From Lachnospiraceae bacterium (GTDB taxonomy: Bacteria > Bacillota > Clostridia > Lachnospirales > Lachnospiraceae), in NCBI GenBank assembly GCA_051877755.1, contig JBJEJE010000003.1, positions 21,460 through 85,459 on the forward strand: a DNA stretch of 64,000 bases. The letters run 5' to 3'. The translations under genes and the position numbers were made by a program. The notes under the pieces were generated by a model, which was not told the origin of the DNA, ran no database searches, and saw only the letters and a program-made list of their open reading frames with translations. Positions 5,846 to 57,814 of the stretch are shown one piece after another; the first letter of the stretch is position 1; each line of letters starts with the position of its first letter.

Positions 5846-5917
5846 TGCACCCGGCGGGAATCGAACCCACAATTATTCTTTAGGAGAGAATTGTTATATC
5901 CATTTAACTACGGGTAC
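5846..5917 (-). tRNA. tRNA-Arg (anticodon CCT)
   Basis: The minus-strand read is GTACCCG-TA-GTTAAATGGATATAAC-A-ATTCT-CTCCTAA-AGAAT-AATT-GTGGG-TTCGATT-CCCGC-CGGGTGC-A. It has a 7-bp acceptor, 4-bp D stem, 5-bp anticodon stem with a CT-CCT-AA loop, and a GTTCGATTCC T-loop. CCA is not encoded. Confidence 0.85.
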
Positions 5918-8547: not shown

Positions 8548-9315
8548 TTATACGTTTATGTTTGTGATGACTTCATCAGCTAGTAATCGATAACTTTCTG
8601 CACCAGCACTTCTGGAATCATATGTTATAATTGGCATTCCGTGACTAGGTGCTTCAGCTAAACGTACATTTCTTGGGATAATTGTCTTATATACATTTTG
8701 ATTGAGATTTTCTTTTACATTTTCAACAACTTGTAAAGATAAGTTTGTACGGGAGTCGTACATAGTAAAAACAACACCCTCAATCTTTAAATCTTTATTT
8801 AATTTCTGCTGAATTAATTCAATCGTATATATCAACTGGGAAAGTCCATCCAAAGCAAAAAACTCACATTGAATTGGAACAAGAACAGTATTTGCAGCTG
8901 TCATGGAATTGATTGTGAGCATTCCTAAAGCAGGCGGACAGTCAATAATTACATAATCAAATTTATCCTGGATTTTTCGTAATTGATTCTTGATAATATA
9001 TTGCATATCCGGTTCTCCAATAAATTCGACTTCAGCACCAGCTAAATATCGATTGGAAGGTAATATATTTAATCCCGGTATTACATTAATTAACATAGCT
9101 TCACCTATGTTACAGTTCTCACACATAACATCATAAATGGTATATTCTAAGTCATCTTTGTTAATACCAAATCCTGTTGTCAAATGTCCCTGTGGATCCA
9201 TGTCTACTGCTAAAGTTTTGAAACCTTTCTCAGCAAGGCAGGCAGCTAAGTTAATAGAAGTTGTTGTTTTACCAACTCCACCTTTCTGATTTGCAATTGC
9301 AATAATTCTTCCCAT
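8548..9315 (-). CDS. parA: Chromosome partitioning ATPase ParA/Soj
   Basis: The deviant Walker A is [34 protein letters not shown] and the 255 aa length also fit. Confidence 0.93.
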
Positions 9316-50146: not shown

Positions 50147-52693
50147 ATGGACGGAAGATTATTTGCAAAGATACTAGTGCTGCTGTTAATCTTTACAGGA
50201 ACCATTTTTGTTGTGAATAAGATCAATAACCGGGGAGTGGAGGAAGTTTCGGTAGAGATGGAACAGGCGACACTTCCGATTGTATATGTGCGTTATAATG
50301 ATGAATTTATTAATACACTGCATGGTTATACCGGTAAGGTGGATACCACATATTTTCGTGATACGATTACACCTATGGATTACGGAAGAACCATAGAGTT
50401 ATGGGCAGATCAGGGAAGCGAAAGTTATGGAACCTATGAGTATGAGTTGAGAAGTCTGTATCAGGGAAATCTGATTGAAAATGGTTCTGTAACGGAACTA
50501 AACCATGCAGATGGTTATGACAAGATCCGTATTAGTTTTCGGACGGAGTTAGAAGAACTTCAGGAATATGTACTGGTATTAAATGCAATGTCAGGAGACG
50601 AAATTGCTGCCAGATATTATACAAGAGTTGTTGTGGAAAATGATTTTCATGCGGATAAATTGTTGGAGTTTGTGGAGAAATTCAATGCTGCAATATTTGA
50701 CAAGGAAGAAGCAGAGGAAGTTATTTCCAAGAGTATTGAGCCAAATGAGGATGGGAATAATGAATATTTATCCGAGGTTAATATTCATTCCAGTTTTGAA
50801 ACCATTACGTTTGCAGGATTAGAACCTGTTCAGTTGACAAAACCCATTGCCAGTATCAAGGAAATTGATGACAGCTATGCAATCATTCAGTTAAAATATA
50901 TGATTTCTGCCAAAGAAAATAAGGTGCTGGAAAATTTTTATGTGACAGAAGATTACCGTGTCCGTTATGTGGATGAGGACAATGTATATCTGCTGGACTA
51001 TAACCGGACTCAGGAGGCATTGTTTACAACGGATAATGTGGATACCGCCAACAATACATTCAAAATCGGTATTACCAATGATGAGAATTACCAGTATGTC
51101 ACCAGTGATAAAGAACGGAAGGTAGCATTTACACAGGCAAGACAACTCTGGTATTACGATTACAGTAGTGGAACCATTACGAATGTATATGGATTCTGCC
51201 AGGAGGATAACTATACAGACAGCCGTGTTACCTATGATGAGAATAATATTAAGATCTTGAAAATGGATGACGAAGGAAATATCACCTTTGCAGTATATGG
51301 GTATATGAACCGCGGTGAACATGAAGGGAAAGTAGGAATTTCCGTATATCAGTTTTTAGCTGAGAAAGATAAGATGCAGGAAATTCTGTTTATTGAAAAT
51401 AATAAACCATACAACATATTAAAAGAAGATATGGAAACGCTGATGTATTTAAATGATGCCGGCGAGTTTTATTATTTTGACAATGACTGTATCGTGAAAG
51501 TGGATACCAATACCATGAAGTCTGAGATCTTTATCGAAGATGTGTTAAATGAGCATTTGGCAGTTTCGGAGGATAATCACCTGCTGGGATATCCAAATGA
51601 ACTTTTGCCGGAAAATACCACGAAAGTTACGGTTTTGAATCTGGACACAAAGGAGAGCCGGGAAATTGAGGCAGGCAGCGGAGAACGGCTGGAGACAATC
51701 GGATTTGTAGAGGAAGATTTGATTTTAGGAAGAATCAGGGAAGGCGATATTGTTGTGGCATTGGATAGAACGGTAACCTGCCCGATTTCCACAATTGATA
51801 TTATTGACAAGAATAATAAAGTAGTAAAGACCTATGGTTCCACAGGTGTTTATGTGATAGAGGCAACGGCAAAGGACGGAGTTGTGTACTTAGACCGTGT
51901 CCGGAAGATAAATGGTGAATTTGAGCCTACTACCCAGGATTTTATCACTTATAAAGAAGAAGAGGACACTGATAAAATCAAAATTGCTTATAGTTATACA
52001 GATAAGGCGTATAATCAGTTGTATATGACATTTCCGGACTATATGTACGTAACAGAAAAACCGAAGCTGATGATTACGAAAAAGGCAGTGAACGAGAATG
52101 ATACCACTGTTAAGATTACCTTTGATCACACCAATAAGAAATTTTATGCCTATGGTCAGGGAAAATATATGACGGATTATCTGAATTTGAATGAAGCAGT
52201 ACGTGTTGCATTTGAAAATGCAGGTGTTGTTTTAGATGAAAATGGAGTAATCGTATGGAGAAAGATAGCGGTAAAGGATTATCATACGGTAGCAGATAAG
52301 ATAAAGATTTATAATGTTTCTGATATTCAGGATACATTGGCAGCCTGCATTTATATGATGGGTATTTATGAAGGAAAAAATCCGGAATATTCTGCAATGC
52401 AGGAGGAACTGGCAAATGAAATACCAATTGAGGATATCATACTGAAGTATACTGGACGGCAGGGAACAGATATTACCGGATGTGATTTTGAAAATGGACT
52501 TTATTATCTTTGTAAAGATGCACCGGTTATTACGAGATTTGCAGACGGCACTTATGTGCTGGTGACCAGCTACAACGGGCAGAAAATCCGTTATATCAAT
52601 CCTCTTGAGGAAAACGATATCGTAGAATCCCGCGAAGAATTTGAAAGCAAAGTAAAGGATAGCGGAAATGTATTCATAAGCTACGTACGATGA
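50147..52693 (+). CDS. Large membrane-anchored hypothetical protein
   Basis: 848 aa. An N-terminal signal-anchor is present (FAKILVLLLIFTGTIFVV). The long extracytoplasmic region has coding-like composition throughout. TAGGAG RBS is present. Confidence 0.55.
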   Translation: MDGRLFAKILVLLLIFTGTIFVVNKINNRGVEEVSVEMEQATLPIVYVRYNDEFINTLHGYTGKVDTTYFRDTITPMDYGRTIELWADQGSESYGTYEYELRSLYQGNLIENGSVTELNHADGYDKIRISFRTELEELQEYVLVLNAMSGDEIAARYYTRVVVENDFHADKLLEFVEKFNAAIFDKEEAEEVISKSIEPNEDGNNEYLSEVNIHSSFETITFAGLEPVQLTKPIASIKEIDDSYAIIQLKYMISAKENKVLENFYVTEDYRVRYVDEDNVYLLDYNRTQEALFTTDNVDTANNTFKIGITNDENYQYVTSDKERKVAFTQARQLWYYDYSSGTITNVYGFCQEDNYTDSRVTYDENNIKILKMDDEGNITFAVYGYMNRGEHEGKVGISVYQFLAEKDKMQEILFIENNKPYNILKEDMETLMYLNDAGEFYYFDNDCIVKVDTNTMKSEIFIEDVLNEHLAVSEDNHLLGYPNELLPENTTKVTVLNLDTKESREIEAGSGERLETIGFVEEDLILGRIREGDIVVALDRTVTCPISTIDIIDKNNKVVKTYGSTGVYVIEATAKDGVVYLDRVRKINGEFEPTTQDFITYKEEEDTDKIKIAYSYTDKAYNQLYMTFPDYMYVTEKPKLMITKKAVNENDTTVKITFDHTNKKFYAYGQGKYMTDYLNLNEAVRVAFENAGVVLDENGVIVWRKIAVKDYHTVADKIKIYNVSDIQDTLAACIYMMGIYEGKNPEYSAMQEELANEIPIEDIILKYTGRQGTDITGCDFENGLYYLCKDAPVITRFADGTYVLVTSYNGQKIRYINPLEENDIVESREEFESKVKDSGNVFISYVR

Positions 52694-52721
52694 TTCTGAT
52701 AATTCCTGTTTGTGAAGTTGT

Positions 52722-52946
52722 GAAGAATTTCACACATATAGGTTGTGAAAGGTTGTGTATGAGACAGGAAAGACACGGTGCTCCATTATGCTGACCGTTC
52801 CAACGAGCCTCAGACATATGAAAAATCTCGGCTTGAGGACCTCGATTTTTCATTGAGTCTCGTTTCCACAGCATAAAAGTCGCACCTTATTCTTTCCTGT
52901 CACACACACAATCTTTTCATTTTACTGGCTATGTGTGAAATTCATT
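52722..52946 (+). ncRNA. Candidate structured RNA A: ~225-nt rod-like imperfect hairpin of unassigned family
   Basis: Nested stems are GAATTTCACACATA/TATGTGTGAAATTC (52725-38/52930-43), GACAGGAAAGA/TCTTTCCTGTC (52763-73/52891-901), TTATGCTG/CAGCATAA, AACGAGCCTCA/TGAGTCTCGTT and ATGAAAAATC/GATTTTTCAT. It is followed by ATTTACGTTTT. It is homologous to the inverted element at 53091-53309. Confidence 0.5.
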
Positions 52947-53090
52947 TACGTTTTGCAGAAACAAGGAATTTCTGTCCTGGGTCGATGTTGAAAATACTAT
53001 ACGACTGAGATATTAATTTATCGCCACCCAGTTATATCATTCTCAAAGGGCATCGGGTGTGGCGAAACTTTATGCTTGAAAAAAGGAGCA

Positions 53091-53309
53091 GATGAATTTC
53101 GCAAGTATACAATAATGTGAAAGGTCTATCATTTGAAAGTTTATAATAAGTGCGACCTTTATGCTGTGGAGAGGAGACTCAGTGGACGCTCGAAGCCTTT
53201 GCTGAGAGTGGCCACACGTTTTGAGGCTCCTCGGAACGGTTAGCATAATCGGAGCACGCTTATAACTTTCAAATGATAGACCTTTGTATAAAATAATGCG
53301 AAATTCATC
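53091..53309 (-). ncRNA. Candidate structured RNA B: ~219-nt rod-like imperfect hairpin homologous to element A and convergent with it
   Basis: Read on the minus strand it shares two ~40-nt core blocks with A (GTGCTCC.ATTATGCT.ACCGTTCC...GAGCCTCA and TGAGTCTC...TCCACAGCATAAA.GTCGCAC). The outer stems differ in sequence but stay paired, including a 24-bp stem at 53122-46/53260-83. It is followed on the minus strand by TGCTCCTTTTTTC. Confidence 0.5.
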
Positions 53310-53422
53310 GTCCGCATCCATACATAAAGTTGGGAAAGCAAAATGAAACAGGAATTTTCAGGAAACTTCCCGCATATAATGATGAATAGAGGTATCATAT
53401 AAACATTTATTTAGGAGGTAGT

Positions 53423-54973
53423 ATGGAATTCATCAAGCGGGAAATTCAAAATTATACATGGAAAGTAAAAAATGTTATGCAGTTTACGATAGATGACACC
53501 ATCAATATTCCGGAAAATCTTTTGGACATGGAGCGGTTAATTTTAGTAAAAGGAAATGTTGTGGTTGACGAAACCCAGGCAATGGTGGACCGGTTTCAGG
53601 TAAAGGGCACATTGAATTATCAGATTCTTTACAGTGCAGACAAGGAGGGAAATGTTTTTGACAGCTTAAATGGAAAAGTTCCATTTATTGAATATGTAAA
53701 TGCAGACGGAACAAAGGAAAGCGATTACATAGAAGTACATGCCAGCATGAATGACCTGACAGTGACAATGCTGCACTCGCGGAAGATTAGTCTGAAAGCC
53801 CTGCTTGGCATTGATTATCAGGTAAAAGAAAATGAGAACTTTGAAGCAGTTACCGAGGTTCAGGGCGATGAGGGGACAGAAGTTTTAAGTGGAGATTTGT
53901 CCATGATGAGTCTGCAGCTTCAGGAAAAGAAGACCATGCAGGTGTCAGAGCAGGTGGAGATTCCGGCGAACAAACCGAATATTTATCAGGTAATCTGGAA
54001 GAGTATGTCAGTTACCCGGATTCAGATAAAACCGGGGGATGGTTATCTGTTAGCCAGTGGAAATTTAAGTGTATTTTTAGTCTATACTGCTGAAGAGGAA
54101 GGAATGCCAATCCAGTATTTCACACTGGAGGTACCATTTGAACAGAGAATCGAGGAGGAGCTTTCCAATGAAGATATGATTTCCGGCAGTTTCCTAAGCC
54201 TTGATCAGTATCATATTACAGTGGTACCGGATGAGAAAGGAGAAGACCGGCTGATCGACTTGGCGGCAGAGTTTACTGTGGAGATTAAGTTGTATGGCAA
54301 TGAGGAAATGAGACTGGTACGGGATGCATATTCCACAGAAATGGAGATTAATCCGAAATGGCGGAATTTTGTTTTACAGCATTTACTGGTACGGAATTGT
54401 GCAAAAACAAAAGTATCTGATATAGTGACAATGCCAAAACAGCAGTCTGTATTACAAATCTGTAATGCAGAGGGTTCAGTATCCATTGATGAAACACAGC
54501 GTTCTGCCAAAGGAATTATTGTGGAAGGTGTTGTAGGAACGCAGATTACCTATCTGAACAAGGAGGAGAATGGTGCGCTTGCTTCGGCAACCTTTGATAT
54601 TCCATTTACCTATGAAATAGAAGTGAATGGAATGCGGGAGGGAGTGACATATTCCATCATTCCATTTTTAGATCAGATTCAGGCAATGCAGATGGGAGAA
54701 AACCAGCTGGAAATCAAGGCGGAAGTATCCCTGGATGTATTGGCATTTACCAATGAGCAGGGAAGGGCGGTTCTTGATATGGAAGTTACCCCTATTAATA
54801 TGGAACGGAAAAAGGAGCTGCCTGGTGTGATTGGTTATATTGTGAAAAAAGATGATACCCTTTGGAGTATTGCAAAAACGTATTATACAACGGTGGAACG
54901 ATTAAAAGAAATCAACGAGCTTACCTCTGATACAATCGGAGTAGGTGATAAGCTCGTGATCTTGAAAGAATAA
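53423..54973 (+). CDS. SPOCS (DUF3794)-domain protein with a C-terminal LysM domain, SpoVID-like
   Basis: 516 aa with repeated SPOCS-like beta-rich segments. The C-terminal LysM is YIVKKDDTLWSIAKTYYTTVERLKEINELTSDTIGVGDKLVI. The architecture is the same as B. subtilis SpoVID. Confidence 0.68.
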   Translation: MEFIKREIQNYTWKVKNVMQFTIDDTINIPENLLDMERLILVKGNVVVDETQAMVDRFQVKGTLNYQILYSADKEGNVFDSLNGKVPFIEYVNADGTKESDYIEVHASMNDLTVTMLHSRKISLKALLGIDYQVKENENFEAVTEVQGDEGTEVLSGDLSMMSLQLQEKKTMQVSEQVEIPANKPNIYQVIWKSMSVTRIQIKPGDGYLLASGNLSVFLVYTAEEEGMPIQYFTLEVPFEQRIEEELSNEDMISGSFLSLDQYHITVVPDEKGEDRLIDLAAEFTVEIKLYGNEEMRLVRDAYSTEMEINPKWRNFVLQHLLVRNCAKTKVSDIVTMPKQQSVLQICNAEGSVSIDETQRSAKGIIVEGVVGTQITYLNKEENGALASATFDIPFTYEIEVNGMREGVTYSIIPFLDQIQAMQMGENQLEIKAEVSLDVLAFTNEQGRAVLDMEVTPINMERKKELPGVIGYIVKKDDTLWSIAKTYYTTVERLKEINELTSDTIGVGDKLVILKE

Positions 54974-56235: not shown

Positions 56236-56403
56236 TTCTCTTATTCAGAGTGGTGGAGTCAGAAGGGACTGGGAAGCCACGGCAACCCCATGTATATGGA
56301 AGGTGCCGGCCTGAGGCGGGCGAATATTTCGCATCGATCAATAAGAGGATTTGAATATAGTGAGCTCATCAACTTCAAATCCTCTCGGATTTGAAGTTTT
56401 TAT
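56236..56403 (+). promoter_or_regulatory. SAM-I (S-box) riboswitch with terminator/antiterminator expression platform
   Basis: P1 is CTCTTATT/AATAAGAG (56238-45/56340-47). Core elements are AGAGTGGTGGAG, GGGACTGG, GAAGCCACGGCAACC and AAGGTGCC. The terminator is CTTCAAATCC-TCTC-GGATTTGAAG plus TTTTTAT (56373-56403). A competing antiterminator pairs AAGAGGATTTGAA with TTCAAATCCTCT. Confidence 0.8.
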
Positions 56404-56626: not shown

Positions 56627-57814
56627 ATGGAGAAACGTATATTTACATCAGAGTCCGTAACAGAAGGACATCCTGATAAAATTTGTGATCAGATTTCCGA
56701 TGCTGTATTAGACGCATTGATGGAGCAGGATCCAAACAGCCGTGTAGCATGTGAAACTTCCATTACAACCGGTTTGGTACTGGTAATGGGAGAGATTTCC
56801 ACGACCGGATATGTGGACATTCAGAAAATTGTCCGGGAAACCATCCGGGAAATCGGTTATGACCGTGCAAAATATGGATTTGACTGTGACACCTGTGGTG
56901 TAATCACTGCCATTGATGAGCAGTCCAGTGATATCGCAATGGGTGTGGACAAGGCATTAGAAGCAAAGGAAAACCAGATGAGCGATGAGGACATTGAGGC
57001 AATCGGAGCCGGTGACCAGGGTATGATGTTTGGTTACGCAACCAATGAGACCGAGGAGTATATGCCATATCCAATCAGTCTTGCACACAAGCTTGCAAGA
57101 AAATTAACAGAGGTTCGTAAGAATGGAACCCTTCCATATCTGAGACCGGACGGAAAGACACAGGTTTCTGTAGAGTATGATGAGAATGGAAAACCGGTCC
57201 GTTTGGAGGCAGTTGTGCTTTCCACCCAACATGATGCAGAGGTAACCCAGGAGCAGATTCATGAGGATATCAGGAAATATGTCTTTGATGCAGTACTTCC
57301 GGCAGACATGGTGGATGACGATACCAAGTTCTTCATCAATCCAACAGGACGGTTTGTAATTGGTGGACCAAATGGAGATTCCGGTCTTACGGGACGTAAG
57401 ATTATTGTAGATACTTACGGTGGATATGCCCGTCACGGTGGTGGAGCATTTTCCGGTAAAGACTGTACAAAGGTTGACCGTTCTGCTGCTTATGCCGCAA
57501 GATATGTGGCTAAGAATATTGTTGCTGCAGGACTTGCCGATAAATGTGAGATTCAGCTATCCTATGCAATTGGTGTGGCACGCCCAACTTCTGTTCGTGT
57601 AGATACTTTTGGAACCGGTAAGATTGATGAGCTGAAACTTGTGGAGATTGTTCGTGAGAACTTTGACCTTCGCCCGGCAGGAATCATCAAGATGTTAGAC
57701 CTTCGCCGTCCAATTTACAAGCAGACAGCTGCTTATGGCCATTTTGGACGTACGGATATTGATCTGCCATGGGAGAAATTAGACATGGTGGATAAGCTGA
57801 AGACATATCTGTAA
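56627..57814 (+). CDS. metK: S-adenosylmethionine synthase
   Basis: [41 protein letters not shown] and TKVDRSAAY are present. Length is 395 aa. Confidence 0.97.

Follow-up and report, generated by a model that had tools for sequence, protein, structure and literature searches.

Two diverged copies of a dispersed foldback repeat with an almost invariant core upstream of sipL in a gut Lachnospiraceae genome

Elements A and B at the sipL locus

The stretch of DNA analysed here, referred to below as the window, comprises 64 kb of contig JBJEJE010000003.1 from Lachnospiraceae bacterium (assembly GCA_051877755.1). It contains a gap of 729 nt between a gene encoding an 848-aa protein (50147-52693) and the SipL/LysM gene (sipL; 53423-54973). 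Two long imperfect hairpins, element A (52722-52946, plus strand) and element B (53091-53309, minus strand), are located in this gap. An initial annotation, made from the letters of the window, had proposed that they are probably unassigned structured RNAs, with a length and shape that recall 6S-type RNAs. Our analysis assigns both to a family of intergenic repeats with a narrow distribution among gut Lachnospiraceae. This family is undescribed; a full-text literature search found no description of it. The gap had also been described as lacking a credible open reading frame (ORF). Minus-strand ORFs of 66, 83, and 52 aa do overlap it, but none of their frames is kept across the copies of the family (alignments read by eye).

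Both hairpins are real and fold end to end. The fold of A (225 nt) has an energy of -92.1 kcal/mol (z -12.1) and that of B (219 nt) of -90.1 kcal/mol (z -13.0); in neither case was any of 200 shuffled sequences as good. The terminal stems are perfect inverted repeats of 14 and 13 nt, while the middle stem is a perfect repeat of 22 nt in B and an imperfect one of 26 nt (88%) in A. The proposed homology of the two elements in opposite orientation was confirmed: mean column identity is 79% for A(+) versus B(-) and 71% for A(+) versus B(+). Within the window, the 3' core block has exactly two occurrences (0.00 expected) and so has the 5' core block, all of them in A and B. Identity between A and B amounts to 72% in the core, and their middle stems are unrelated. 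A covariance model of the 121-nt core region matches only A (52771-52891, 110 bits) and B (53144-53263, 113 bits) in the window; one further, marginal match at 8789-8875 (+; 13.6 bits, E=0.8) is probably due to chance.

Element B is longer than its hairpin. On the minus strand it is preceded by a conserved 5' flank, TTCCCAACTTTATG-N13-GGAC (53310-53337), and followed by a 3' tail (53049-53090) in which a variable spacer leads to CATAAAGTTTCGCCACACCCGATGCC, the conserved right end of the type-1 elements described below. Since type-1 elements share both parts, B extends over about 289 nt (53049-53337). The initial annotation had placed a separate hairpin between A and B, at 53021-53065. This hairpin contains the conserved 3' tail of B, namely CGCCACACCCGATGCC at 53049-53064 (minus strand), and it arises because the tail part CGCCACACCC pairs locally with 53021-53029. 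The tail motif was found solely beside hairpins of the family, and the stretch at 53049-53064 therefore belongs to B. Likewise, the 5' flank adjoins unrelated genes in other type-1 copies and is thus part of the element; a sporulation promoter of sipL in this flank was considered and rejected. The -10 region of sipL likely lies further downstream, outside element B, judging from an upstream stretch at 53372-53390 (+), GCATATAATGATGRATAGA / GCATATAATGATGAATAGA, which is kept as GCATATAATGRTGGATAGA in orthologues at 73-87% identity.

Element A is a diverged and partly degenerate member of the family. Its ends, GAAGAATTTCACAC and GTGTGAAATTC, resemble the type-3 ends GAAATTTCACAC (compared with locus L062). 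A degenerate 3' tail may follow at 52947-52990 (+), where TTTCTGTCCTGGGTCGATGTTG aligns with the type-1 tail TTTCGCCACACCCGATGCC, an assignment of low confidence. The A-B pair as a whole is bracketed by a 16-nt inverted repeat, CTGATAATTCCTGTTT at 52696-52711 and AAACAGGAATTTTCAG at 53346-53361 (94% complementary), which was not seen in other family members.

Dispersal, copy number, and orientation

Scanning one genome per species with a two-block core pattern returned 25 stretches, 19 of them with the whole core. All 19 come from metagenome-assembled genomes labelled Lachnospiraceae, Lachnospira, Clostridium sp., or Eubacteriales. A scan of gut metagenomes gave 19 further loci, and clustering by flanking sequence resulted in approximately 22 independent intergenic loci. 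Copy numbers per genome, all of them lower bounds, are five in LOHA17_bin.039 (on four contigs), four in Lachnospira PUUB23_bin.023, three in UMGS1563, and two in CM_BacCAG2177.86. The covariance model finds one or two copies per related locus, and most family members are solitary.

The genes flanking the copies are unrelated and encode an ABC ATPase with a histidine kinase, FtsX permease, GH1, MatE, GyrA (locus L031), HD, NlpC/P60 with QueT, and SipL. No protein family recurs as a neighbour except for generic ABC ATPases. The motifs at the ends of the elements occur on the elements themselves only. BLAST of the locus and of type-2 and type-3 elements against plasmid and phage records gave no match; in viral contigs, the single-block pattern had 12 chance matches and the two-block pattern none. 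Two mobile arrangements were considered and rejected. A composite transposon bounded by the pair of copies on contig Ga0153983_1000034 is contradicted by the sequenced genes near both copies, which are housekeeping genes without a transposase. A single-strand origin of the ssoA type, as carried by rolling-circle plasmids or ICEs and with CS-6 (TAGCGT) in its terminal loop, does not fit the location in core chromosome (recR, pfk, sipL, metK), the lack of plasmid or phage matches, and apices without TAGCG.

The orientation of the elements relative to genes is random. The 5' side follows a gene end in 13 cases and faces a gene start in 11, two elements lie between convergent gene ends, and 14 elements are on the local gene-majority strand versus 10 on the opposite one.

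Core and subtypes

All family members share an almost invariant, asymmetric core of 85 nt, which was delimited by pattern match and family alignment. It consists of TGCT, unpaired AACCGTTCC, a covarying 3-bp stem, GAGCC/GGTCTC with a C.T mismatch, an apex, unpaired TCCAC, and AGCA. The core of A (52789-52873, plus strand; 85 nt) has the order TGCT, GACCGTTCC, stem with C.T mismatch, apex, stem, TCCAC, AGCA; the core of B is located at 53162-53245 (minus strand; 84 nt). The compensatory swaps that had been read from A and B are all present, as are the retained C.T mismatch and the asymmetric loop that is identical in both. The loop, of 9 x 5 nt, and the mismatch are invariant in 21 family members, and the unpaired core bases and the position of the C.T mismatch do not change across three subtypes. 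The apical 40 nt or so had been regarded as free to vary; instead, types 1 and 2 each retain an apex motif, CTCAGC(TT/AA)RAGGCTTCGA. The apices of the two elements read CTCGGCTTGAGGACCTCG and CTCAGCAAAGGCTTCGAG.

The three subtypes have completely different ends, and elements of the family are approximately 230-300 nt long. Type 1 includes B and eight other loci; its arms begin with GTGCTCCGRTTA, its hairpin ends are GATGAATTTC/GAAATTCATC, and it carries the 5' flank and 3' tail described for B. Type 2 has arms with TGCACAAATAAGTTGTTTGAATTCCGTTG and the inverted-repeat ends AGGGTGKCAAAAGYCC on both sides. Type 3 consists of near-perfect, GC-rich hairpins of 220-280 nt with energies of -170 to -215 kcal/mol. 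The terminal repeat of type 2, GGGCTTTTGACACCC (e.g., L028, 3372-3401, plus strand), contains a perfect TTGACA that faces outward; together with a -10-like hexamer in the flanking DNA it could form a hybrid promoter, like the ends of some insertion sequences (IS).

Pairing and strand bias of the arms

Base pairing of the hairpins is maintained through compensatory changes, as had been suggested by the comparison of A with B. Among 12 type-1 copies, 43 of 65 predicted pairs have changed on both sides. Eighty-nine percent of cells are paired, versus 69% in column shuffles and approximately 41% with slid partners, and none of 500 shuffles reached the observed values. Paired changes also distinguish orthologous copies from different samples, e.g., ATGATCA/TGATCAT versus ATGGTTATC/GATAACCAT. 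Strong covariation in a long hairpin is not proof of an RNA gene, since dispersed DNA palindromes give the same signal.

Wobble pairs were counted after aligning each 5' arm with the reverse complement of the 3' arm in 23 non-redundant elements. On the strand that the initial annotation had taken as sense, 96 G.T but only 46 A.C mismatches were found (p=3e-5), at scattered positions, and a fold-based count agrees with this result (90 versus 49). A count that included the core pairs, 85 versus 101, gave an impression of no strand bias, which we rejected: it was dominated by constant core pairs counted once per copy and was reversed when restricted to the arms. Strand-symmetric mutation in a paired stem predicts equal numbers of G.T and A.C. 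A bias of transcription or replication is an unlikely cause, given that the elements have no preferred orientation relative to genes. It thus seems to be the single-stranded form of the sense-strand hairpin that matters, be it RNA or single-stranded DNA, in agreement with the polarity originally claimed.

Rearrangement junction, deletions, and direct repeats

The locus was compared with related genomes (L039-L044 and L066-L068). In these, a Hydrolase_2 gene and a gene for a 139-aa protein lie upstream of sipL (SipL identity 87-73%), and downstream of the gene for the 848-aa protein (identity 87-90%) there is a cluster of ferredoxin and PFL-activase genes in convergent orientation. The covariance model detected no element at either place, and none of these Hydrolase_2, 139-aa, ferredoxin, and PFL-activase genes is present in the window. 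Given that both genes have different neighbours in the relatives, A and B sit exactly on a lineage-specific rearrangement junction.

Deletions within the elements were found at two loci. In the sister strain L045 (Logan DRR025073, 3241-3598), whose SipL is 99% identical, the gap measures 356 nt instead of 729. The left arm of A is fused there to B at the shared TTATGCTG, which corresponds to a 373-bp deletion. A mis-join by the assembler is judged unlikely because the k-mers at the L045 junction are absent from the window. A spurious 53-aa gene was called across this hybrid. At the QueT-NlpC/P60 locus, comparison of L065 (2824-3000) with L028 (3054-3452) shows that only the last 45 nt, the right end, of a type-2 element are left in L065, a relative of the L028 genome; the remainder was lost through a deletion of 220 nt between direct repeats of ATTTTTTAT. 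The copy in L025 has apparently lost its outer left arm. At least the A core and one arm of B are dispensable. In gut Lachnospiraceae, a poorly studied group, the family is a marker of rearrangement junctions and of hot spots of deletion, which is of importance for genome assembly and comparison.

Several type-2 copies are abutted by direct repeats, namely TTAATAG at L016 and L028, CAATCGA/CAATTGA at L022, and TATTA at L032, with uncertain boundaries. As target-site duplications they are only suggestive. No direct repeats were seen at the ends of type-1 elements.

The arrangement of A and B as mutual inverted repeats around a 144-bp spacer, upstream of sipL and with the same convergent layout at two other loci, could be taken for an invertible switch that flips this spacer. 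We consider this highly improbable. The two elements are too dissimilar (72% core identity, unrelated middle stems), most members of the family have no partner, and the only difference observed between strains is a deletion rather than an inversion. In addition, the conserved -10 region of sipL is outside the A-B pair, and there is no recombinase gene nearby.

A palindrome kept by the host, acting as duplex or cruciform DNA for a nucleoid, recombination, or replication protein, would account for the core being conserved in place, for the low copy number per genome, and for copies at a rearrangement junction. It would also agree with the position of two loci by origin-proximal genes, i.e., dnaX-ybaB-recR, which adjoin the locus in the window, and gyrA at L031. 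Such a host site is, however, a rather unlikely explanation. A cruciform or duplex should treat G.T and A.C alike, which is at odds with the twofold difference between them; copies have been lost or truncated between close strains; their positions are not conserved between related species; and the ends of the subtypes have nothing in common.

Tests for features of RNA genes

No known RNA family could be recognized, as the initial annotation had anticipated. Rfam cmscan of positions 52600-53450 on both strands gave no match at E<=10, 6S models included, and representatives of types 2 and 3 had nothing relevant in Rfam 15 at E<=10. The sole sizeable match for the subtype representatives was plant MIR1846 on a GC-rich perfect hairpin, which scored 51.8 bits, below its gathering score of 77.5. 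The T-rich tracts reported after each element do follow A and B, but other copies have not kept them, and after neither element was a terminator called. Among the copies, no conserved promoter or terminator was found at the element ends.

A number of more specific candidates were rejected. A small ORF or type I toxin is not supported by any frame or start codon conserved between subtypes. A cis-regulatory leader or riboswitch was dismissed in view of the random orientation and of the copies located between convergent genes. An intrinsic terminator with a GC-rich stem and U tract was not called after A or B, and the T tracts vary among copies. Inspected by eye, the conserved flanks did not yield ECF, sigma-54, SigH, SigE, or SigK promoters, as spacings vary between 18 and 22 nt or are off by one. 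The hammerhead-like GAUGAG sits in a covarying stem and not in a conserved catalytic core.

The elements might still constitute a multi-copy structured RNA family, the sense transcript being made alone or within that of a neighbour, with a core that binds a protein or ligand and arms that serve as a stabilising stem. Such an RNA would be in line with the strong covariation, the invariance of unpaired core nucleotides and of the non-canonical C.T across three subtypes, the much better preservation of the core than of the arms both within genomes and at orthologous loci, and the two-to-one preponderance of G.T over A.C on the sense strand. Several observations speak against it, and we regard it as unlikely. 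Conserved promoters and terminators are lacking at the ends, orientation is random with some copies squeezed between convergent gene ends, and the elements are absent from orthologous sites in close relatives and deleted between strains. The type-3 copies are near-perfect hairpins of 220-280 nt and -170 to -215 kcal/mol; long duplexes of this kind are expected to be cut by RNase III. The wobble bias is only 2:1, lower than is usual for the stems of functional RNAs, and Rfam has no match, 6S included. A reading as discrete 6S-like genes for small RNAs is thus not supported: the elements are dispersed, missing at orthologous sites, polymorphic between strains, randomly oriented, and without conserved promoter or terminator.

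Genomic setting and other features of the window

The surroundings of the locus are ordinary chromosome, with recR, pfk, a gene for an HD-domain protein, and an S-adenosylmethionine (SAM) riboswitch with metK nearby. At gathering scores, Rfam recognizes only two features in the whole window. One is the SAM riboswitch (S box) at 56238-56347 (+; 63.6 bits), located in the ordinary arrangement upstream of the S-adenosylmethionine synthetase gene (56627-57814). The other is a tRNA gene at 5846-5917 (-). The protein encoded by the 848-aa gene (plus strand) has no Pfam domain but, at E<=1e-50, over 5000 homologues, whose length is exactly 848 aa in nearly every case; in the relatives checked its gene is positioned after dnaX-ybaB-recR-pfk. 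It is a conserved, uncharacterised protein of Lachnospiraceae.

Proposed nature and mobility of the element

We propose, with moderate confidence, that the family is a non-autonomous foldback repeat similar to ERIC or to miniature inverted-repeat transposable elements (MITEs), whose folded core is recognised on one strand by an enzyme with its gene elsewhere in the genome. A and B are two old, diverged copies of this non-coding repeat of approximately 230-300 bp. The enzyme would move the repeat in trans and would do so by recognising the folded core on the sense strand. The long arms clamp the core; their sequence drifts while complementarity is kept. Complementarity could be preserved by either or both of two processes, selection for folding in the single-stranded state and intrastrand template switching at the quasi-palindrome. 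The latter is known to give DNA hairpins apparent compensatory changes. At the locus in the window, the two copies lie tail to tail on the lineage-specific rearrangement junction, outside the sipL promoter.

The initial annotation had named many near-identical dispersed copies with target-site duplications as the mark of MITE behaviour. Dispersal and near-identical cores within a genome were indeed found, and the putative target-site duplications are only suggestive. With dispersal, random orientation, absence in relatives, decay, and direct repeats, the family therefore shows most of what such behaviour implies. The elements are small, non-coding, and dispersed (230-300 nt, no kept frame, two to five or more copies per genome at unrelated sites). 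Terminal inverted repeats are present as well, since the whole element is palindromic, with AGGGTGKCAAAAGYCC at the ends of type 2 and GATGAATTTC/GAAATTCATC in type 1.

A number of observations weigh against this proposal. No transposase or HUH gene, including TnpA or RAYT, was seen near any copy, and no autonomous relative or parent IS was found, in the carrier-contig pieces of approximately 1-14 kb. A clean empty site was not obtained, as relatives without the element also differ in flanking synteny and the single orthologous site that was recovered, in L065, contains a remnant left by deletion. The TTAATAG repeat, occurring at two loci, may be part of the element, and no unambiguous target-site duplication was obtained. 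The conserved part is the centre and not the termini, the opposite of a classical MITE. The four cores of Lachnospira PUUB23 are 98-100% identical to each other, compared with 74-86% for the whole elements, and this contrast is also seen in the other genomes. At orthologous loci, core diversity is 0.033-0.035 versus 0.07-0.11 in the arms, and it is also below that of some flanking sequence, with few differences counted. This low diversity suggests constraint on each resident copy, which is not predicted for a purely selfish element. The wobble bias is equally expected for a sense-strand RNA. Finally, all three two-copy loci are convergent, tail to tail (plus, then minus): 52771-53263 in the window, 1714-2165 in L037, and 2053-2493 in L062. 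The unique sequence between the paired copies is approximately 75-145 nt in all three.

The invariant core and the self-correcting arms could also indicate a new kind of hairpin-borne element, in which a dedicated protein reads the core on one strand, as single-stranded DNA or RNA. It could be a new system of single-strand transposition or a multi-copy structured RNA hitch-hiking on foldback DNA. This idea is offered tentatively, and we think it improbable. If it is true, core conservation, the G.T bias, and tail-to-tail pairing would reflect the biology of the element and not chance. Should the core be the handle of an undescribed enzyme or RNA-binding protein, it would point to a novel mechanism, of mobile-element or RNA type, in one of the major groups of gut bacteria.

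Comparison with known repeat systems

General background on small bacterial repeats is available (PMC3184786).

The nearest systems are, in our view, ERIC/IRU, bcr1, Correia/NEMIS, RUP, and PATE/REPIN. ERIC (enterobacterial repetitive intergenic consensus) or IRU elements are likewise non-coding imperfect palindromes, present in intergenic regions in either orientation and at low to moderate copy number. They also have a conserved central part and no transposase of their own, and their mobility is inferred rather than demonstrated. However, they belong to another phylum and have no sequence relationship to the Lachnospiraceae element. The latter is twice as long, keeps only its 85-nt core while the arms diverge with compensation, and has three unrelated types of ends.

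MITEs that form long hairpins, among them bcr1 (Bacillus cereus group), Correia/NEMIS (Neisseria), and RUP (pneumococcus), are similarly small, non-coding, and dispersed, with inverted-repeat ends and a hairpin fold that shows compensatory changes between copies. The type-2 copies, with their AGGGTGKCAAAAGYCC ends and adjoining AT-rich direct repeats, are closest to them. In classical MITEs, however, the termini bound by the transposase are conserved and the interior drifts, whereas the interior is invariant here. A parent IS was not encountered in the pieces of carrier contigs.

PATEs (palindrome-associated elements) and REPINs are derived from IS200/IS605 and moved by HUH (Y1) transposases on single-stranded DNA. 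Their recognised substrate is a strand-specific folded DNA hairpin, as may be the case in the present family. Such a substrate would explain why G.T is in excess on the sense strand and why unpaired bases are conserved. Type-1 copies also resemble them in having asymmetric ends and no evident target duplication. Their hairpins are, however, subterminal and about 20-40 nt long, as opposed to a single hairpin of 220-290 nt. There is no conserved 4-5-nt target 5' of the type-1 left end, where the preceding bases differ at every locus, and no orientation bias relative to the gene-majority strand (14 to 10).

The likeness to 6S RNA is limited to a length of approximately 200 nt, a rod-like shape, and an internal loop. 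Models of 6S RNA (RF00013 and related) do not match at E<=10, and the 9 x 5-nt loop with a single C.T mismatch differs from the large open-promoter-like bubble. The copies are dispersed and variable in number, in contrast to the one or two conserved 6S genes with promoter and terminator. The family is best filed among interspersed intergenic palindromic repeats, within which its invariant core is unusual.

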